Shown here piece after piece: positions 2,522-52,172 of a DNA stretch of 64,000 nucleotides (positions are counted from its first letter, which is position 1; each line of letters begins with the position of its first letter). The notes under the pieces are model-generated. The model ran no database searches. It was not told where the DNA came from and saw nothing but the letters and a program-made list of their open reading frames with translations. The position numbers and the translations under genes were made by a program. The DNA lies in the IMG/VR virus record IMGVR_UViG_3300043397_000067, positions 1 through 64,000 of that record, one strand, 5' to 3'. This DNA comes from a virus.

Positions 2522-2962
2522 ATGGCAGTCATCGTCAATACCGATAAGAATACCCTTGAAATAGAGGATATAGGCGTGACTCTAAGGACCTTGCTTGCAT
2601 GCGGCGCTAAAGGGTACGCCACATCAGGTCGTAGGAAGTGGTCTGTGTACTATCACGGTGCAAAGATCGCAGAGATTCAAATCAAAGATACCCACTTGAA
2701 AGGAAAGAGAAATGAACACAGCAGTAGCACAAGCCCTGATAGCAGCCGGAATCAAGCCAAAGCCGTTGAAGGAGCGGGTGTGGTTGTGGTTGAAGGACCA
2801 CCCGGACCACACTGGAACGTCAGTATCGAAAGCACTGCAGGAGTCGGAGCAGTCAGTAGCATCGGCACTGGCGGACATGACTATGCGGGGGATGCTAGCA
2901 AGGGAGCAGACAAGAAGCATGCGTCGGAACATCAAGGTGTGGATTTACAAGGCAGTAGGTGA
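2522..2962 (+). CDS. Hypothetical protein; 3' part overlaps the next gene
   Basis: ATG 3 nt after the peptidase stop; ~250 nt overlap with 2712..3215 makes the C-terminal half doubtful. Confidence 0.35.
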   Translation: MAVIVNTDKNTLEIEDIGVTLRTLLACGAKGYATSGRRKWSVYYHGAKIAEIQIKDTHLKGKRNEHSSSTSPDSSRNQAKAVEGAGVVVVEGPPGPHWNVSIESTAGVGAVSSIGTGGHDYAGDASKGADKKHASEHQGVDLQGSR

Positions 2963-3215
2963 TACCTATACGGTATTGCCACGGGTCAAGGATGCTACAC
3001 CAAGGAAGTGGCGTCCAACAATGTCTTCTTCAAAGACCCCGCCTATCGGGCAAGCACCAGCCATTGTAGCTATTGCGGAGCTACCGCATTCACCGGTAGG
3101 GCCTAACCCTGATACCTGCACACGGAAAATTTCTGTACAGGAAATTGTAGACGGTATGACCGTCTCAGAAGCGCGTGAAATGCACACGTATCTCAACTCA
3201 CTTTTCGGAAAGTAA
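2712..3215 (+). CDS. Putative winged-helix DNA-binding protein
   Basis: RBS AAAGGA; ERVWLWLKDHP..T...VSKAL....SVASALADM..RGML wHTH-like pattern. Confidence 0.6.
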   Translation: MNTAVAQALIAAGIKPKPLKERVWLWLKDHPDHTGTSVSKALQESEQSVASALADMTMRGMLAREQTRSMRRNIKVWIYKAVGDTYTVLPRVKDATPRKWRPTMSSSKTPPIGQAPAIVAIAELPHSPVGPNPDTCTRKISVQEIVDGMTVSEAREMHTYLNSLFGK

Positions 3216-3490: not shown

Positions 3491-3507
3491 GTGTAGAATT
3501 CAATCCC
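3491..3507 (+). promoter_or_regulatory. Promoter-like motif GTGTAGAATTCAATCCC (-10 TAGAAT)
   Basis: TAGAAT at 3494-3499 in an intergenic region; near-identical copy at 3892-3909. Confidence 0.55.
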
Positions 3508-3553
3508 AGCAGCACAGTGCTGCAAAACAAAACCCAACCAAGGAACCATTATC

Positions 3554-3838
3554 ATGGCTGCAATTCAAACCTCTATCGCAATCCCCGCTTTGAAGCGTTT
3601 CGCTTCCAAAGGCTCGTCCTATGACTTCGCTGGCCTGCGCGCTGGCACCGAAGACTGCATCGCAGAAATGGGTGTCGTCAACGCTGGCAAGGCCCATGCA
3701 CGGCTGTCGAGCGCCGTTGTGGCCTACCGCAAGCGTAGCGGTAGTAAGGACAAGTTCACGGTGCGTACCTTCAAGAACGCAGAAGGTCAGGACTGTGTGG
3801 GTGTGTGGAAGCTGGCAACGCCGGAAGCCGCTGCCTAA
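3554..3838 (+). CDS. Small basic putative DNA-binding protein
   Basis: IAIP....KGSSYDF....AYRKR...KFTVR...GVWK pattern of a widespread small phage protein family; RBS AAGGAA; own promoter and terminator. Confidence 0.7.
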   Translation: MAAIQTSIAIPALKRFASKGSSYDFAGLRAGTEDCIAEMGVVNAGKAHARLSSAVVAYRKRSGSKDKFTVRTFKNAEGQDCVGVWKLATPEAAA

Positions 3839-3862
3839 ACCCTGCTAAGGGTTTTTCCTAAG

Positions 3863-3889
3863 AAAACGGGGGCTTCGGTCCCCGTTTTT
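3863..3889 (+). terminator. Rho-independent terminator
   Basis: AAAACGGGGGC-TTCG-GTCCCCGTTTTT. Confidence 0.85.
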
Positions 3890-3891
3890 GC

Positions 3892-3909
3892 GTGTAGAAT
3901 TTCAATTCC
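3892..3909 (+). promoter_or_regulatory. Promoter-like motif GTGTAGAATTTCAATTCC upstream of the RNA block
   Basis: TAGAAT at 3895-3900; repeat of the 3491 motif. Confidence 0.55.
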
Positions 3910-3921
3910 TGTCATATTTTC

Positions 3922-4215
3922 AGTGGTATGTGTACACGTTAGGTCTATTAGCTTAGGCTGCAAACTGGGTAACCGGGAGATATACAGCCACTATCAGAAC
4001 GGCGCTGTGGAAAGACACAGTAAATGCGGACCAATTAGGCTGTAGCACGGGGAAGCTCTGTCATGTAGCACGAGGCGTATGCCGGTAGACTCATGCAGAA
4101 TGTCGGGAACAGCCAAGCTAGTATGAAAACACTAGCCCGTTCTGATAGTGGTAAAGAAAATAGCGGTTTGCGGGTCAAGTAGAGGGTCACCCCGCAGTGA
4201 GCAAGTAATACCACT
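3922..4215 (+). ncRNA. Candidate structured ncRNA with a tRNA-shaped core (3988-4151)
   Basis: Perfect 15-bp stem 3988-4002/4137-4151; internal stems 4005-4020, 4038-4043/4109-4114, 4117-4136; outer 8-bp pairing 3922-3929/4208-4215; no credible ORF. Confidence 0.55.
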
Positions 4216-4217
4216 AC

Positions 4218-4293
4218 GTATCGGTAGCTCAACTGGCAGAGCAGTGGCCTCCAAAGCCGAAGGTTGAGGGTTCGACTCCTTCCCGGTACGCCA
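4218..4293 (+). tRNA. tRNA-Trp (CCA)
   Basis: Cloverleaf: GTATCGG/CCGGTAC acceptor, GCTC/GAGC D-stem, CT-CCA-AA loop, GAGGG-TTCGACT-CCTTC T-arm, G73, encoded CCA. Confidence 0.93.
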
Positions 4294-4445
4294 GCTATAT
4301 CGTAGGCGCGTTAGGCGAAAGTAGGTTGAGTAGCTTAGCGTGCCTACGAGATAGCTAGCAACAGCGGTCGCATACACTTGGCACTTACTGGGTGCGTTTC
4401 CTCTAGTGTATGCGTTTCCTGTACTTGCAGGTGCGCTAGCTATCT
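4294..4445 (+). ncRNA. Candidate structured RNA in the tRNA 3' trailer
   Basis: 23-bp stem 4294-4316/4333-4355 (one mismatch, three G-U); 10-bp stem 4369-4378/4405-4414; 11-bp stem 4349-4359/4435-4445. Confidence 0.5.
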
Positions 4446-4466
4446 ACCACCACTTTAAGGAGAGAT

Positions 4467-4913
4467 ATGAAAAGGATACTCACACCGGGCTCCCCACAAC
4501 TACTTGAGCTGCTATCGGCGCTAAACCTAGGGCAAAGACCTGTAAAAAACCTTGAGTTCTCCATAGACGTTGAGAGCATAGGTTATATCACAGTCACTAC
4601 AGTAGCGTCAGAGTACGACTGCGCTGCCATCACCAAGTTCCTACAGCACCCACTTGAAGCTAAAGCAAGGGCACTTGCTAAGGCTTTGAGAGAGACAAAC
4701 TTTGAATCAAGTGCGTCTATATGCGCCCTTGACGACCAATTAAACGCCCTTGAGGAAGAACTCAATGTCCTACCAAGCCGTATTTCCGAAAATAGCCGGA
4801 ACGTACCTCCCGGAGAAGCCAAGAGAACGGAAGTCCCTAACAGGTACTCGATCAGGGTACAAGATGGACTACAAGCACCAGACGCAGAAGTACCCACACA
4901 AGGAGATAATTGA
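4467..4913 (+). CDS. Hypothetical protein
   Basis: Strong RBS TAAGGAG before the ATG. Confidence 0.65.
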   Translation: MKRILTPGSPQLLELLSALNLGQRPVKNLEFSIDVESIGYITVTTVASEYDCAAITKFLQHPLEAKARALAKALRETNFESSASICALDDQLNALEEELNVLPSRISENSRNVPPGEAKRTEVPNRYSIRVQDGLQAPDAEVPTQGDN

Positions 4914-5052
4914 TAAGGTACTTGCGGGAGCTACTTGGGAACAATGTGCAGCTGAATATAACTGCACATTAGGCGCTATGTATCTACGTAAGCTAGTTAT
5001 CGTAGGTGCAGCCGCACGAAACCTTAAACCAGAGCAGGCACGTAAATTATGA
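4765..5052 (+). CDS. Hypothetical protein, possible HTH
   Basis: GAGGA before the ATG at 4765; ATGA coupling to rtcB; TWEQCAAEYNCTLGAMY HTH-like segment. Confidence 0.5.
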   Translation: MSYQAVFPKIAGTYLPEKPRERKSLTGTRSGYKMDYKHQTQKYPHKEIIDKVLAGATWEQCAAEYNCTLGAMYLRKLVIVGAAARNLKPEQARKL

Positions 5053-6278
5053 TAGTCATTCAAGAGCAAGGTAGCAGGCCAATTAAAGCATGGGTTGGAG
5101 AAAAACCCATGCCCGGAGCATCCTACGAAGATGTAGTGCTTAACGGGGCTACGGTGCCCGACATTGAAGATACTGCACTGCAGCAAGCCAAGAACCTTGC
5201 GCGGCTCCCCTTTATTGCAAAGAACGGTGTGGCTCTTATGCCAGACGTTCATGCAGGCGTAGGGTCTACCATCGGCAGCGTTATCGCTACACACAAAGCG
5301 ATTATCCCGGCAGCAGTAGGTGTTGACATTGGCTGCGGCATGTGCGCCGTCAAGACCAATCTCAAGGCCAGCCAACTGCCCGACTCCATGAAGGGTATCT
5401 TCGATGCTATTTCTAAGGCAGTACCAGTGGGCTTTAACCAGCACCAAGAGAACTCGAAGCAGTTTGCGGTGAACTCGTGGGACATGACAAACCTGCCAGC
5501 AGAAGTACGCACAGACAAGCTTCACACTAAAGCTGTAGCCCAGCTTGGTACTCTAGGTGGCGGCAACCACTTCATCGAGATATGCTTGGACGAGAACCAA
5601 GATGTGTGGGTTATGTTGCACAGCGGCTCTCGCGGCGTTGGCAATGTTATTGGAACTACGTTTATTGATAAAGCCAAGGAGCATATGGCCCGTAACTTTA
5701 TCGAACTACCAGACCCCAACCTTGCTTTTCTGCCAGAAGGCGACAAGCTATTTCAAGACTACATCAGCTGTATGTTATGGGCACAGCACTACGCTAAGAA
5801 CAACCGCAAGGTAATGCTTGAGAATGTGCTTAAGGTTTTGGCAGAACAAATCACGGACCTCAAGGTTACAGAGGAAGCTATTAACGTACACCACAACTAC
5901 GCCCAAAGGGAGAACCACTTTGGGCAGAACCTGTGGATTACGCGAAAAGGCGCTACTCGTGCAGGCAAGGGTGAGCTTGGCATCATCCCCGGCAGTATGG
6001 GCCAGAAGTCCTACATCGTTTGCGGCAAGGGTCACGTAGAGAGCTACTGTTCTTGCAGTCACGGCGCAGGCCGCTCGATGAGCCGCACAGAGGCTAAAAA
6101 GCGGTTCAGCTTGACTGACCTTGTTTCGCAGACGCAAGGCGTGGAGTGCCGCAAAGACGAAGGCGTACTGGACGAGATTCCGGGTGCCTACAAGGACATA
6201 GATGTGGTGATGGAAAACCAGAAAGACTTGGTTGAAGTGGTACACACCCTCAAGCAAGTCATGTGCATTAAGGGGTAG
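5049..6278 (+). CDS. rtcB: RtcB family RNA 3'-phosphate/5'-OH ligase
   Basis: MPDVHAG, VGVDIGCG, GTLGGGNHFIE, LHSGSRG, HHNY, TRKGA, IPGSMG, SCSHGAGR, DEIPGAYKDI. Confidence 0.96.
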   Translation: MIVIQEQGSRPIKAWVGEKPMPGASYEDVVLNGATVPDIEDTALQQAKNLARLPFIAKNGVALMPDVHAGVGSTIGSVIATHKAIIPAAVGVDIGCGMCAVKTNLKASQLPDSMKGIFDAISKAVPVGFNQHQENSKQFAVNSWDMTNLPAEVRTDKLHTKAVAQLGTLGGGNHFIEICLDENQDVWVMLHSGSRGVGNVIGTTFIDKAKEHMARNFIELPDPNLAFLPEGDKLFQDYISCMLWAQHYAKNNRKVMLENVLKVLAEQITDLKVTEEAINVHHNYAQRENHFGQNLWITRKGATRAGKGELGIIPGSMGQKSYIVCGKGHVESYCSCSHGAGRSMSRTEAKKRFSLTDLVSQTQGVECRKDEGVLDEIPGAYKDIDVVMENQKDLVEVVHTLKQVMCIKG

Positions 6279-20898: not shown

Positions 20899-20974
20899 GG
20901 GACGGTAGCATAACGGTTAGTGCCGTGACCTCATAAGTCATAAGGTGTAGGTTCAACTCCTATCCGTCCCACCA
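20899..20974 (+). tRNA. tRNA with CAT anticodon (Ile2 or elongator Met; not initiator)
   Basis: GGGACGG/CCGTCCC acceptor, GTGAC-CTCATAA-GTCAT arm, GTAGG-TTCAACT-CCTAT T-arm, A73, CCA. Confidence 0.92.
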
Positions 20975-28055: not shown

Positions 28056-30081
28056 ATTTAGGCAGCATGAGTCTAAGGTAGTAAACTTTACATCGGGCCT
28101 TAACGTCATCCGTGGCGCTAACGAAGCAGGCAAGAGTACTATCTTTGAGGCTATCATGTACGCCTTCTACGGGGCACGGGGTCTGCGTGAGTCGTTGGAT
28201 GATGCCGTGACATGGGGTAACCCGGCGTCGCAACTCAGGGTTAAGTTAGTGTTCACTCACTTAGGCGTCAAGTTCACCATCACCCGGTCAAAGTCGGGCG
28301 CAGAGCTTGTCGGACCCGGAGTGACGGCCTCGGGCCAGTCTGAGGTCACCAACTTCGTCACGGCCTTGTTTGGTGCCCCGCTTGACGTTGCCAAGGCCAT
28401 CCTCATGGCGAAACAAGGCGGCTTGCAGGAATCCCTCGACGGCTCTAGTGTACGGATGATTGAGCAACTTGCTAATGTCCAACTGATAGACAAGCTCATT
28501 GAGTGGGTGCAGCTTGACTTGTCTACTGGAAACACTAGCTCGCTGGTCAAGCAACTACAAGACTACCGCGATATGGTAGCCCCAGTGTTAGATACCGCAG
28601 AAGCTGACGCTAAAGTATCTACACTAACTTCCCGAGTTGAGGCAGTTAAAGCAAACCTTGAGTTGGTAGAAGCTAAAATCGCTAACCTGCAGTGGGCACC
28701 ACCTGTGATAGCAGCTAGGGCGGACTATAACGCTAAGCGGGAAGCTTTGGATAGTACGCTTACGCGCCTGCAAACTACACTGCCGTCAGTACCAGAGCCG
28801 GTAGAAGATAACTCCAAGGAGTTAGAAGCAGCGGCTGCTGAACAGACTCGCAACAAGGAGCTTCAAGGCAACTACATGAAGTATGCAGCTTTCGTACAGC
28901 CTAAAGTCGATAGTAAATACACATCAAGAAGTGAGGCAGACGCTCACCGTGAGAAACTTCAAGAAGAAATTCGCGCTATTACGAAAGGGTTATCAGATAC
29001 TAGCACTAAGATAGCGGTAGAACTATCAAAGAAAATTACAGAAACAGCCTGCGGACTATGCGGTAAAGACTTATCACAGGTGCCAGAAGTTGTAGAGAAG
29101 AATAAGGTAATAGATAGCACCATCGCGGCCCTTAAGGTTAGTAAAGCTAGCTTAGAGGCAAATCTTAGCGCCTATAACCTGCAACTGAGCGGTTTGATAG
29201 AGTTGCTTAAAGCAGACTCTGCTGCTAGAAATACAGCAGCAGGTATCCCCCACCTTGAGGAATATCCCACCTTTCCTGCCACCTACGGATGGGCTGGCGG
29301 TATTCCAGTAGTAACTTACGTTGACTATGCAAAACAGTTAAAGGAGCTTACTACAAAGCTTGCACAAAGAGAAGCTGCTTTGCATCAGTATAACAAGGTT
29401 CAGACGGCTATAGAGGTTACTAGGGTCAACATATCAAGGTTGTACAACCCTGTGCAATCAGAAGTTGACATGGCTAATGAAGCATTTGCTGAGTTGACGT
29501 TAGCAGCTACACGTAAGAATGAATCTATTGACGAGCGTAGGCGGCTGGAATCTCAGCTTTCTGAGGCTAGGCACACCCTAGCGATTTTGGAGACGCGCCA
29601 TACGGAGCAGATGAAGGCTTTTACACAGGCTCAATCTCAGGCCTCGGTAGTAGAGTCTAGTATCAGGGAGATGACAGATAACAATCTCTTGATTAAGAAG
29701 CTGAGGGAAGCAAGGCCGTCAGTAACTAACCGCTTATGGAATACTGTACTTGGTACAGTAACCAGTTACTTCTCACAACTTCGTGGTGTTCATACAGTAG
29801 TAGGGCGTAAAGATGACTGCTTCACGCTTGACGGCAAGAAGCATACATCCTATAGTGGTTCTACCCAAGACTGCCTTGGCCTTGCCATTCGTGCTACCCT
29901 GCAAAAGACCTTCATGGCCGGCTGTGACTTCACCACGTATGACGAGCCTGCAAGTGGGTGTGACTTAGCGCGGGAAAGCGATATGCTAGCGATGCTATCG
30001 ACTTGTGGGTTTGAGCAGGTACTGCTCGTCACCCACAGCGACTTAGCAGACGCTTACGCTACTAACTTCATCCAGATATAG
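28030..30081 (+). CDS. sbcC: SbcC/Rad50-like SMC ATPase
   Basis: GANEAGKS, zinc hook CGLC, YSGS signature, YDEP, LVTH; coiled coils. Confidence 0.9.
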   Translation: MLNELTLTKFRQHESKVVNFTSGLNVIRGANEAGKSTIFEAIMYAFYGARGLRESLDDAVTWGNPASQLRVKLVFTHLGVKFTITRSKSGAELVGPGVTASGQSEVTNFVTALFGAPLDVAKAILMAKQGGLQESLDGSSVRMIEQLANVQLIDKLIEWVQLDLSTGNTSSLVKQLQDYRDMVAPVLDTAEADAKVSTLTSRVEAVKANLELVEAKIANLQWAPPVIAARADYNAKREALDSTLTRLQTTLPSVPEPVEDNSKELEAAAAEQTRNKELQGNYMKYAAFVQPKVDSKYTSRSEADAHREKLQEEIRAITKGLSDTSTKIAVELSKKITETACGLCGKDLSQVPEVVEKNKVIDSTIAALKVSKASLEANLSAYNLQLSGLIELLKADSAARNTAAGIPHLEEYPTFPATYGWAGGIPVVTYVDYAKQLKELTTKLAQREAALHQYNKVQTAIEVTRVNISRLYNPVQSEVDMANEAFAELTLAATRKNESIDERRRLESQLSEARHTLAILETRHTEQMKAFTQAQSQASVVESSIREMTDNNLLIKKLREARPSVTNRLWNTVLGTVTSYFSQLRGVHTVVGRKDDCFTLDGKKHTSYSGSTQDCLGLAIRATLQKTFMAGCDFTTYDEPASGCDLARESDMLAMLSTCGFEQVLLVTHSDLADAYATNFIQI

Positions 30082-30108
30082 TAAAGGGAGCCTAGGCTCC
30101 CTTTACTA
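30079..30108. terminator. Bidirectional terminator between the genome arms
   Basis: Perfect 30-bp palindrome TAGTAAAGGGAGC-CTAG-GCTCCCTTTACTA. Confidence 0.85.
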
Positions 30109-50501: not shown

Positions 50502-52145
50502 GTGAACAAGTTTGAGGAATTCGTAGCAAAGGCTGGCCCAGTCCATGAGGGTAAGTACACATACTTATCTATAGGTACTGGAAAACGTAGAAAGATAGTT
50601 TATCAGTGTTCTACTCACGGAGTCAAGGAGCAGGACGCTACAGCACACCTAAGAGGTGCTGGATGTGTGGACTGTTCCTATGAGCTTAGAGCCGCTAATA
50701 AAAAACTAACGCTAGAGCAGGCTATTAAAAGGATAGGGTCAAAACATAATAATAAGTACAGTTACTTAAGAATTGGCACTAACTCAGCCAATAAGTCCAC
50801 TGTAGTGTATGTATGTAATAAACATGGAGAGCAAGAGCAGTCCCTAAATGACCACGCTAACGGACACTCATGCTGTGGCTACGATACTTTAAAAGTAAGT
50901 AACTCTGATAGGTATGAGGACTACTTAGCTAAAGCTATTAAAATCCATGGCAATAAATACACGTATAAACCGTCTGATATAGAAGGTTACTTTTTAATCA
51001 CATGCCCTACACATGGAGAGTTTCATAAGAGATTTACAAGCCATGTACACTCCGAAGAAGGGTGTAAGAATTGTGCTTATGAAGCCTTCGGTAAGTCCAT
51101 AAGGTACGACTTTGAAGACTACTGCAGTAGAGCATCTACAGCTCATAATAATAGATATACATATACTGAACTTATATACGGTAAAGGTCGTACACTTATA
51201 AGAGCTGTATGTAGAGAACACGGAGAATTCATACAGAATGCTAAAGACCACTTATCTAAGCTGACTAACTGCCCTAAGTGCAGTAATAGCGGTGTGTCTG
51301 CACCTTCTATAGAGTTATCTGAATACTTAAGCCAGTTCGGTTTAGTAGAGAGTGAATATAGAGTAGAGGGTTGCAGGTTAAGATGGGATATAAAATATAG
51401 TAATACTTTAATAGAGTACGACGGCCTATACTGGCATTCGTCACAGCATAAGAGTAACGCGTACCATAGCGAAAAAAGACGCTTAGCAGAGTCGTCAGGA
51501 TTTAGTCAAATAAATATATTTAGTGATGAGTGGACTAATAAGAAAGCTTTAGTAAAGCGGCTGTTGCTTAATAGGCTTGGATTATCAACAGAGTCTACAG
51601 TCTATGCTAGAAATACTGTAGTATGTATTGTAGATTCAAAAAAAGCTAGTGAGTTCCTAGACTTATACCATATACAGGGCTATAAAAAATCTAGTCACTA
51701 TGTTGGATTAGTATATAGTGGAGAAGTAATAGCTATAATAGGCTATGAAATGCGTGAGTCTGGCAGAGGTAAAACAACGTCTAGCAGCCACATGGAAATT
51801 ACCCGGTACACAACAAGCTGTTCTGTACCGGGTGGGTTCAGTAAATTACTTAGCTTCCTTATAAAGAATAGCCCCGACTTAGTTGAGGTATATACATTCT
51901 CAGATAAAAGGCTATTTTCTGGTACGTTATACGAACGCTGTGGGTTCAAAAAAGTAGCCACTGTAAGACCTAGCTACTTCTACACTGATGGGGTTAGTAG
52001 GTATGACAAGTCTTCATACCAAAAAAGTAAGTTAGCTACTATGACCAACAAAGTTGGCACTGAGGAAGAAATGGCTGCTTCTCTTGGGCTATACAGGGTT
52101 TATGACTGCGGTAAAGTGAAGTGGTCTAAGCGAATCAGCAAATAA
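50502..52145 (+). mobile_element. Free-standing homing-endonuclease-like gene (Zn-finger repeats, Vsr/PD-(D/E)xK-like nuclease, Mom/GNAT-like C-terminus)
   Basis: Four CxxHG...H...CxxC-type repeats; IEYDGLYWH; HIQG...EITRY...GGFSKLL...FSD.R..G.LY...GF; AT-rich; antisense to neighbours. Confidence 0.8.
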
Positions 52146-52172
52146 ATAAGGGACCCTAGGGTCCCTTATTTA
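52143..52172. terminator. Bidirectional terminator
   Basis: Perfect 30-bp palindrome TAAATAAGGGACC-CTAG-GGTCCCTTATTTA between convergent genes. Confidence 0.85.

Follow-up and report, generated by a model that had tools for sequence, protein, structure and literature searches.

The tRNA region of bacteriophage T4 gives rise to two non-tRNA RNAs, RNAC and RNAD (species 1 and 2), whose role is unknown (PMC3014915, PMC9697503). Such non-tRNA RNAs of phage tRNA units are the closest in kind to the element analysed here, a folded leader upstream of a tRNA-Trp gene in IMG/VR phage record IMGVR_UViG_3300043397_000067; the record has 80,014 base pairs (bp) and is rated complete by CheckV, and its first 64 kb are the window, i.e. 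the whole stretch of DNA under analysis. Like RNAC and RNAD, the element is a non-coding, non-tRNA stretch in a phage tRNA transcription unit, where it is presumably matured by tRNA-processing enzymes; unlike them, it forms a 5' leader, is closed by a 16-bp helix, is linked to the RNA ligase gene rtcB and is replaced in sister phages, and it has no sequence or model similarity to either RNA.

RNase III processing stems are a further point of comparison: these long, nearly perfect helices beside stable RNA, which tolerate any sequence that preserves the duplex, flank stable RNAs and phage early mRNAs, for instance in the rRNA operons of E. coli and the early region of T7. The element is predicted to share with them the long near-perfect helices beside a stable RNA in a longer transcript, but its closing helix, P1, has 16 bp and closes a multi-hairpin junction, not the tRNA itself; by analogy, the element would work, at most, like stems of this type. 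GOLLD and ROOL are structured non-coding RNAs of phages and prophages, found next to tRNA genes and with partly variable domains. The element is much smaller, no conserved family of it was found, and neither RNA was matched at E values up to 10 between positions 3500 and 4800 or at gathering score in the whole window.

The element is a real, unannotated, strongly folded leader domain that is lineage-specific and interchangeable. It lies within a gene-free island of 628 nucleotides (nt; 3839-4466), between the terminator of the upstream operon and two small open reading frames (ORFs) followed by rtcB, and it combines this position and a strand bias of its wobble pairs with a robust fold, a conserved frame and an interchangeable core. 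The island is the second-largest gap of the genome, a spurious minus-strand ORF at 4132-4377 being disregarded, and the element, tRNA-Trp and all neighbouring genes are on the same (+) strand. The stretch is non-coding: natural variants show no codon periodicity in the single 40-amino-acid (aa) frame it contains (3944-3999). A preliminary description had seen here a tRNA-shaped RNA of about 295 nt behind its own promoter-like motif, and had overlooked the tRNA-Trp gene (4218-4293), which starts only 3 bases past the end coordinate it gave for the element, the terminator (3863-3890) and the place of the element as a 5' leader in a gene-free island. The supposed independent RNA is more plausibly a leader belonging to the tRNA-Trp precursor, and its central 230 nt are not conserved in the sister contigs L084 and L085, which were retrieved by a metagenome scan with the 148-aa protein encoded downstream of the tRNA. 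The leader has the following parts:

3891-3914, + strand: conserved left frame of the leader, identical in L084 and with one difference in L085
3915-4144, + strand: variable 230-nt cassette, window allele, replaced by an unrelated 178-nt segment in L084 and L085 (alignment)
3922-3929, + strand: 5' strand of an outer 8-bp helix, pairing with 4208-4215; also a direct repeat of the AGTGGTA at 4147-4153
3942-3959, + strand: hairpin A, predicted by folding, 6 pairs, two of them G-U
3965-3976, + strand: hairpin B, predicted by folding, 4 pairs, one of them U-G
3987-4002, + strand: 5' strand of P1, the 16-bp long-range helix (inverted repeat and fold)
4004-4021, + strand: P2, a 6-bp hairpin with loop GAAAGA, pair probability above 0.92
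4022-4037, + strand: J2/3, a joiner of 16 nt, single-stranded in the predicted fold
4038-4114, + strand: P3 arm, a 6-bp base helix (GGCTGT/ACAGCC, 4038-4043/4109-4114) with an irregular 65-nt interior
4117-4136, + strand: P4, a 6-bp hairpin with loop ATGAAAAC, pair probability above 0.96, abutting the 3' strand of P1 without a spacer
4137-4152, + strand: 3' strand of P1, its outer 8 nt (4145-4152) within the frame conserved in the sister phages
4145-4217, + strand: Module B, a conserved 73-nt rod-like hairpin (inverted repeat) that ends 1 nt before the tRNA

P1 contains a perfect 15-bp inverted repeat (3988-4002/4137-4151) and has 16 pairs when G3987-U4152 is counted. This stem, already noted in the preliminary description, is beyond chance: none of 30 block-shuffles of the genome gave a perfect inverted repeat of at least 15 within 300 nt. 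It is also the only long-range repeat of its kind in the 80-kb genome, all others being terminator-type palindromes with loops of 0-18 nt. The elements of the four-way junction follow each other in the order P1 (16 bp), 1 nt, P2, 16 nt, P3 arm (77 nt), 2 nt, P4, 0 nt, P1. Four further features that had been listed are indeed in the sequence: the hairpin with the GAAAGA loop (4004-4021), the GGCTGT/ACAGCC stem, the two copies of TGTAGCACG, at 4041 and 4064, and the last hairpin, which directly adjoins the 3' strand. P3 carries two 12-nt direct repeats, TGTAGCACGGGG (4041-4052) and TGTAGCACGAGG (4064-4075), 23 bp apart. P1, P2, the base of P3 and P4 all have pair probabilities above 0.92 in each of four contexts, with or without the tRNA and the 3' spacer. 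The 294-nt stretch has a fold z-score of -4.0, and after correction for GC (guanine plus cytosine) content a better fold than that of the inner domain (3987-4152) is found in only 6 of 1997 genome windows.

Outside the junction, an outer 8-bp helix and flanking stems had been proposed. The outer pairing (3922-3929/4208-4215) exists, but folding predicts it, with a probability of 0.66-0.95, only in the absence of the tRNA; with the tRNA included, the probability falls to about 0. Both flanking stems are likewise present, one as a hairpin at about 4168-4197 and the other as GGCTG/CAGCC (3956-3960/3985-3989), but the latter competes with P1 and with the hairpin at 3942-3959. Pairing between 3965-3978 and the 3' end of the tRNA is at chance level (about 0.7 expected). 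The promoter-like motif was not borne out: a scan for sigma-70-like promoters found nothing on either strand, and TAGAAT at 3895-3900, in the left frame, is a possible -10 element that we regard as putative only.

Comparison with the sister phages reveals a sharply bounded exchange. The coding flanks of L084 and L085 are 88-96% identical to the window; the left frame is 96-100% identical up to position 3914, and identity resumes at 4145, with about 95-99% from there to the ORF and 91-94% in the ORFs. Module B alone is 97-99% identical in both sister contigs, versus 91-94% for the next ORF. Between these frames the 230-nt cassette is replaced by the unrelated 178-nt segment, and a 29.7-kb contig from an independent 2018 run (X7) has the same joint (3914 to 4145), again with 178 other letters in between. 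The sister segment also folds strongly (z = -4.2) and has its own perfect 16-bp helix plus an extension. Each allele recruits a part of the conserved frame: the 5' strand of the sister helix includes CCTGTCA of the left frame, and the 3' strand of P1 in the window allele uses ATAGTGGT of the right frame. Module B has a stem of its own (4146-4153/4209-4216) that is free to form in the sister phages, as predicted for L085, and the window cassette brings a second AGTGGTA copy (3922-3928) that is able to take over the pairing with 4208-4215.

Both inserts are bracketed by short direct repeats, the window insert by AGTGGTA (7 nt; 3922-3928 and 4147-4153) and the sister insert by TCCTGTC and TCCCTGCTGTC; the two alleles can for this reason be derived, at the sequence level, from one short ancestral leader by one putative insertion each. 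The same repeats fit the main rival to a functional leader, namely passenger DNA: a functionless or selfish insertion, made by illegitimate recombination or an unknown mobile mechanism at a hot spot in the tRNA leader, that would be transcribed merely because of its position and whose helices would reflect the origin of the cassette and not a role in the phage. A different insert at the same place in sister phages is what such a hot spot would produce, and the cassette is single-copy with no homologue found elsewhere. A second gain or loss event has taken place in the neighbourhood, which also fits: L084 has a 210-nt insertion (2580-2789 of that contig) between the 95-aa gene and rtcB, coding for a small Cys-rich, zinc-ribbon-like protein, that is missing from the window and from L085. 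We nevertheless consider the passenger explanation doubtful. The ends of the insert have no terminal inverted repeats, the genome is compact, and searches of it found no transposase or integrase (no tyrosine integrase, no IS200/IS605 TnpA or TnpB) and no reverse transcriptase. The core of the cassette is invariant in diverged copies, and changes from U-G to C-G pairs are found in its hairpins.

A miniature inverted-repeat transposable element (MITE) was examined as a specific form of such an insertion. As in the MITE-like Correia and ERIC sequences, the element is about 160 bp in size, has perfect inverted repeats of 15 bp and lies in a presumably transcribed intergenic region; unlike them it is single-copy, and its flanks (..ACAG / TAAAG..) show no target-site duplication. 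Since the 15-bp repeat is not terminal and its right arm lies partly in sequence common to the sister phages, the cassette is not a classical MITE.

Natural variants of the window allele were found by aligning contigs from four runs to the stretch. One copy is identical (X4), one has 5 differences over 3909-4087 (X5) and one has 13 differences over 3957-4112 (X6). Two of the changes turn U-G into C-G pairs: 3944 T>C (X5) in hairpin A and 3966 T>C (X5 and X6) in hairpin B. X6 has five transitions in the 5' strand of P1 and its contig ends before the partner strand; three of the five still pair with the unchanged partner, and the other two would pair only if that strand had C4142>T and A4145>G. 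At the base of P3, X6 has 4039 G>A, for which a T at 4113, in the unaligned tail of the contig, is a possible compensating change. P2 and its loop, J2/3 and the P3 interior are invariant in both X5 and X6. Downstream of the tRNA, 4308 G>A in L085 turns a G-U into an A-U pair in the long hairpin called Module C.

These changes bear on the strand, and on whether the helices act in RNA or in DNA. Across all helices of the island there are five interior wobble pairs, all of them G-U on the + strand and none A-C, which points to + strand RNA, because RNA from the minus strand would need pairs of the A-C type. The variant pair changes and the wobble types thus favour + strand RNA, if on few such points. 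A DNA-level element, with repeats serving as a protein-binding, replication or recombination site, would be consistent with the perfect 15-bp arms, with the two 12-bp direct repeats 23 bp apart, with the helix-turn-helix (HTH) proteins encoded on both sides (a MarR-like match at 2712-3215 and the 95-aa HTH protein) and with the fold score of the minus strand, which is as good as that of the + strand. It is very unlikely all the same: 134 bp separate the two arms, every wobble position is of the type expected for + strand RNA, sister phages lack the repeats while retaining the flanking HTH genes at 90-95% identity, and the obvious repeat-rich control region of the genome is elsewhere, at 65.3-69.2 kb.

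Our tentative reading of the element, to which we give a chance somewhat short of even, is that of a structured 5' leader to a tRNA-Trp precursor; this precursor would head, or lie within, a unit running into the two small ORFs and rtcB. The leader would consist of a conserved frame (3891-3914 plus Module B, 4145-4217) and the interchangeable cassette (3915-4144), an autonomous four-way-junction domain closed by the 16-bp helix. The region would be transcribed on the + strand and RNase P would cut at 4217/4218, freeing the leader. P1 could stack coaxially on P4 to give about 22 stacked pairs; this duplex and the roughly 24-bp Module C would together serve RNA processing or stability, with the tRNA set apart from the RNA on either side by RNase III-type cleavage or by protected ends. 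For such a job one stable fold would be as good as another, which would explain why the sister phages carry an unrelated cassette with a perfect 16-bp helix of its own. Measured against an RNase III site, the available duplexes are P1 with 16 bp (22 with coaxial P4), Module C with about 24 bp and the sister helix with 16 perfect pairs plus its extension. Two further observations fit this leader model: phage rtcB is often embedded in or beside tRNA genes in the loci that we examined, and tRNA-Trp sits in a roomy island, unlike the second tRNA of the window, a tRNA-Met (CAT; 20899-20974), which is packed 6-10 nt from its neighbouring genes.

Several points weigh against it. The sequencing runs that contain the stretch (freshwater metagenomes) include no RNA runs, and the promoter scan was empty. 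P1 alone, with 16 bp, is below the two or so helical turns typical of RNase III sites. The replacement of the cassette by an unrelated sequence fits a functionless passenger equally well. Predicted pairs are broken by a change at 4300 in Module C and by changes at 4408/4409 in hairpin D, further downstream; two changes in L084 disrupt hairpin D. Finally, X6 differs by about 25% in its 5' part but not at all in the core (4000-4100), and such an invariant core looks more like a sequence-specific function or a recent transfer than like a site at which any fold will do. On balance, the role of the element would most likely be in RNA processing or stability.

An invariant core is also what a trans-acting stable RNA would have. 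In that case the leader released by RNase P would serve as a decoy or sponge in a conflict over tRNA damage and repair, to which tRNA-Trp, tRNA-Met and rtcB would point, with different alleles aimed at different host factors. The domain is autonomous and very stable, J2/3, the P2 loop and the P3 interior do not vary in X5 and X6, and the two 12-nt direct repeats are candidate binding sites. Phage tRNAs have been proposed to replace tRNAs cut by host nucleases (PMC10264068), and the linkage of the element to rtcB and to a tRNA whose amino acid has a single codon fits such a replacement. Codon-usage compensation cannot explain either tRNA-Trp or tRNA-Met, as both serve single-codon amino acids. 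RNAC and RNAD of T4 are a precedent for stable RNAs in a phage tRNA unit. We still regard a trans-acting RNA as unlikely: the cassette is absent from sister phages that keep tRNA-Trp, both small ORFs and rtcB; and the searches found no complementarity to targets within the genome beyond chance and no resemblance to a family. The stronger proposal of a new trans-acting stable phage RNA, whose alleles would be interchangeable 'warheads' against host factors in a tRNA cleavage and repair conflict, is slightly less likely again.

No family was identified by the homologue searches. BLAST against 50,697 phage records matched the tRNA only. The 15-mer of P1 had 21 single chance matches in viral contigs, none with a second arm, and exact and gapped patterns for the cassette core, the sister cassette and Module B found nothing in viral or prokaryotic genome contigs; as these scans need exact words, diverged relatives may escape them. 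Among 60 rtcB loci from viral contigs neither blastn nor nhmmer detected a homologue, and the loci had no synteny in common beyond rtcB. A covariance model built from the single sequence of the inner domain matched only itself, and the element is single-copy in the genome. The homologue collection that had been suggested as a check yielded the two sister contigs, X7 and the two diverged copies X5 and X6, but no further homologue.

The novelty of the element was upheld by Rfam: a scan of 3500-4800 at E values up to 10 returned only the neighbouring tRNA and a chance SAH fragment, with nothing in 3915-4217, and at gathering score the whole window gave only the two tRNAs. The idea of a tRNA mimic or decoy fared differently. 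An undescribed structured element is present, with a robust fold and no Rfam family, but mimicry is not supported by the tRNA and YrlA models or by ARAGORN. The tRNA shape holds for the four-way-junction topology and for nothing more; this cloverleaf-like arrangement is the sole sense in which the element is tRNA-shaped. The RF00005 model and ARAGORN call only 4218-4293 and not the element; its closing stem has 16 bp and not 7, no CCA follows position 4152, and the loops GAAAGA and ATGAAAAC lack the GG of a D-loop and the TTCRA of a T-loop.

In YrlA loci, a Ro60/TROVE gene lies within about 4 kb on the same strand, and the motif GNCGAAN0-1G is found near the 5' end of the RNA (PMC4201824). YrlA Y RNAs (RF02553) resemble the element in having a long closing stem, a multi-hairpin module and an rtcB neighbourhood, but the order of the hairpins is different (PMC4201824), and the element has no model match, no mimicry of T- or D-arms and no Ro-binding motif. 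No YrlA score in the genome exceeds 8.4 bits (gathering score 69), and this one falls on the true tRNA; no Ro60/TROVE gene was matched in the 80-kb genome, although the host may have a Ro60, and GNCGAAN0-1G does not occur in 3891-4217. A single match to the motif, GGCGAAAG at 4314-4321, is at the top of Module C, the long hairpin that immediately follows tRNA-Trp; as such a match is expected about once in 15 regions of this kind and the genome is without a Ro60 gene, it is probably due to chance. A tRNA mimic or Y-RNA-like RNA that engages tRNA-binding enzymes or a host Ro60 could draw on the junction topology, on the last hairpin, which abuts the closing stem like a T-arm, on the neighbouring rtcB, as in bacterial rsr-yrlA-rtcBA loci (PMC4201824, PMC7790460), and on this one motif match, but the match is past the tRNA and outside the element, and no TROVE gene was found. 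We consider such mimicry extremely unlikely and largely refuted by the model searches already; what the evidence supports is an ordinary leader structure that had escaped annotation.

Other identities were rejected too. Neither ARAGORN nor Rfam found a transfer-messenger RNA (tmRNA), and there is no tag-like ORF in the sequence. A group I intron had no Rfam match, and none of the 8 registers that the AGTGGTA repeat allows combines a final T in the 5' exon with a final G in the insert. The element has inverted repeats, as do retron non-coding RNAs, but no RVT_1 match was obtained in the genome. For a ribozyme-flanked RNA circularised by RtcB, no hammerhead, twister, pistol, hatchet or HDV-like match was obtained at E values up to 10; CUGAUAG at 4141-4147 is not a hammerhead core, with two key purines swapped. 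The core sites of an integron attC (GTTRRRY/RYYYAAC) do not fit.

The features that surround the leader are the following:

3863-3890, + strand: intrinsic terminator hairpin AAAACGGGG/CCCCGTTTT followed by a T-run, ending the upstream operon (inverted repeat), identical in L084 and L085
4218-4293, + strand: tRNA-Trp, anticodon CCA, with encoded CCA end (ARAGORN; Rfam tRNA, 58 bits)
4293-4356, + strand: Module C, a long hairpin with about 24 pairs, its first base being the A of the tRNA CCA (inverted-repeat analysis)
4369-4414, + strand: hairpin D, 10 bp, in the spacer before the first ORF (inverted-repeat analysis)
4467-4913, + strand: 148-aa ORF without a family, its 3' third overlapping the next gene
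4765-5052, + strand: 95-aa gene, probable HTH, starting inside the 148-aa ORF, its stop overlapping the rtcB start (ATGA)
5049-6278, + strand: RtcB RNA ligase gene (Pfam PF01139, E 1e-126; PHROG 1075)

The terminator can also be read as a terminator on the minus strand. Module C, in which three interior pairs are G-U and one position is an A-G mismatch, ranks among the most stable folding windows of the genome. Between hairpin D, the second hairpin past the tRNA, and the 148-aa ORF there is a strong Shine-Dalgarno sequence. The 148-aa protein has no Pfam or PHROG family and no usable Atlas match, its AlphaFold model has a predicted local distance difference test score (pLDDT) of 45, and its close relatives in a large protein collection form one 90%-identity cluster of 5 sequences. 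The 95-aa gene is hidden in a plain ORF reading and was revealed by the substitutions among the window, L084 and L085, which switch at about 4767 to the third positions of the +1 frame; remote relatives of its product carry HTH repeats.

Folded RNAs and tRNA-related genes were also seen at other phage rtcB loci. In an unrelated phage whose RtcB is 46% identical (L056, 2585-2928), a tRNA-Met is followed by a helix with 24-nt arms (2585-2608/2755-2778). Two hairpins 109 nt apart lie inside this helix, one resembling a D-arm (2611-2627, with GG in the loop) and one resembling a T-arm (2737-2753, loop TGCAAAT); a second long-helix domain comes next, directly upstream of rtcB. This stem-closed RNA, called by neither ARAGORN nor Rfam, is a better extended-acceptor tRNA look-alike than the element in the window. 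Another phage has a gene-free stretch of 555 nt (L037, 2247-2801, the same as L074) with a z-score of about -5, located 200 nt upstream of rtcB and without an Rfam match at E values up to 0.1. Within 2 kb of rtcB there is a tmRNA gene in one phage (L069, 1920-2265) and a suppressor-type tRNA with anticodon CTA in another (L025, 1183-1258), and at several loci a tRNA-Pro or tRNA-Met directly follows rtcB.

The rest of the phage genome encodes a 2231-aa tape-measure protein, portal, large terminase, DNA polymerase, primase and an SbcC-like nuclease, as expected of a tailed phage. Two perfect and similar 15-bp palindromes without loops (30079-30108 and 52143-52172; TAxTAAAGGGAxCCT) directly follow stop codons and are probably bidirectional terminators. 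The largest gene-free region, with the most stable folding windows of the genome, lies outside the window at 65300-66600 (L086, 800-2100); a 15-nt repeat occurs there six times in tandem where a coding region ends, and there is a perfect 20-bp palindrome (65523-65563). TTTGCGG motifs on the + strand run on to 69.2 kb (25 in the genome, about 10 expected), and the repeat-rich region of 65.3-69.2 kb is probably the control or origin region of the phage.

Phage tRNA regions have repeatedly been found to hold folded RNAs that are without annotation or explanation. The leader described here is a clean natural experiment of this kind: two unrelated and equally well-folded cassettes occupy the same leader slot in co-circulating freshwater phages. 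If processing or stability is their only role, they illustrate the ease with which leaders of this type are swapped. Should the two alleles have different effects, an RNA-based counter-defence linked to tRNA repair would be a candidate role for them, and, if the cassettes are trans-acting RNAs, they would point, together with the stem-closed RNA of L056, to a recurrent class of RtcB-linked structured phage RNAs.

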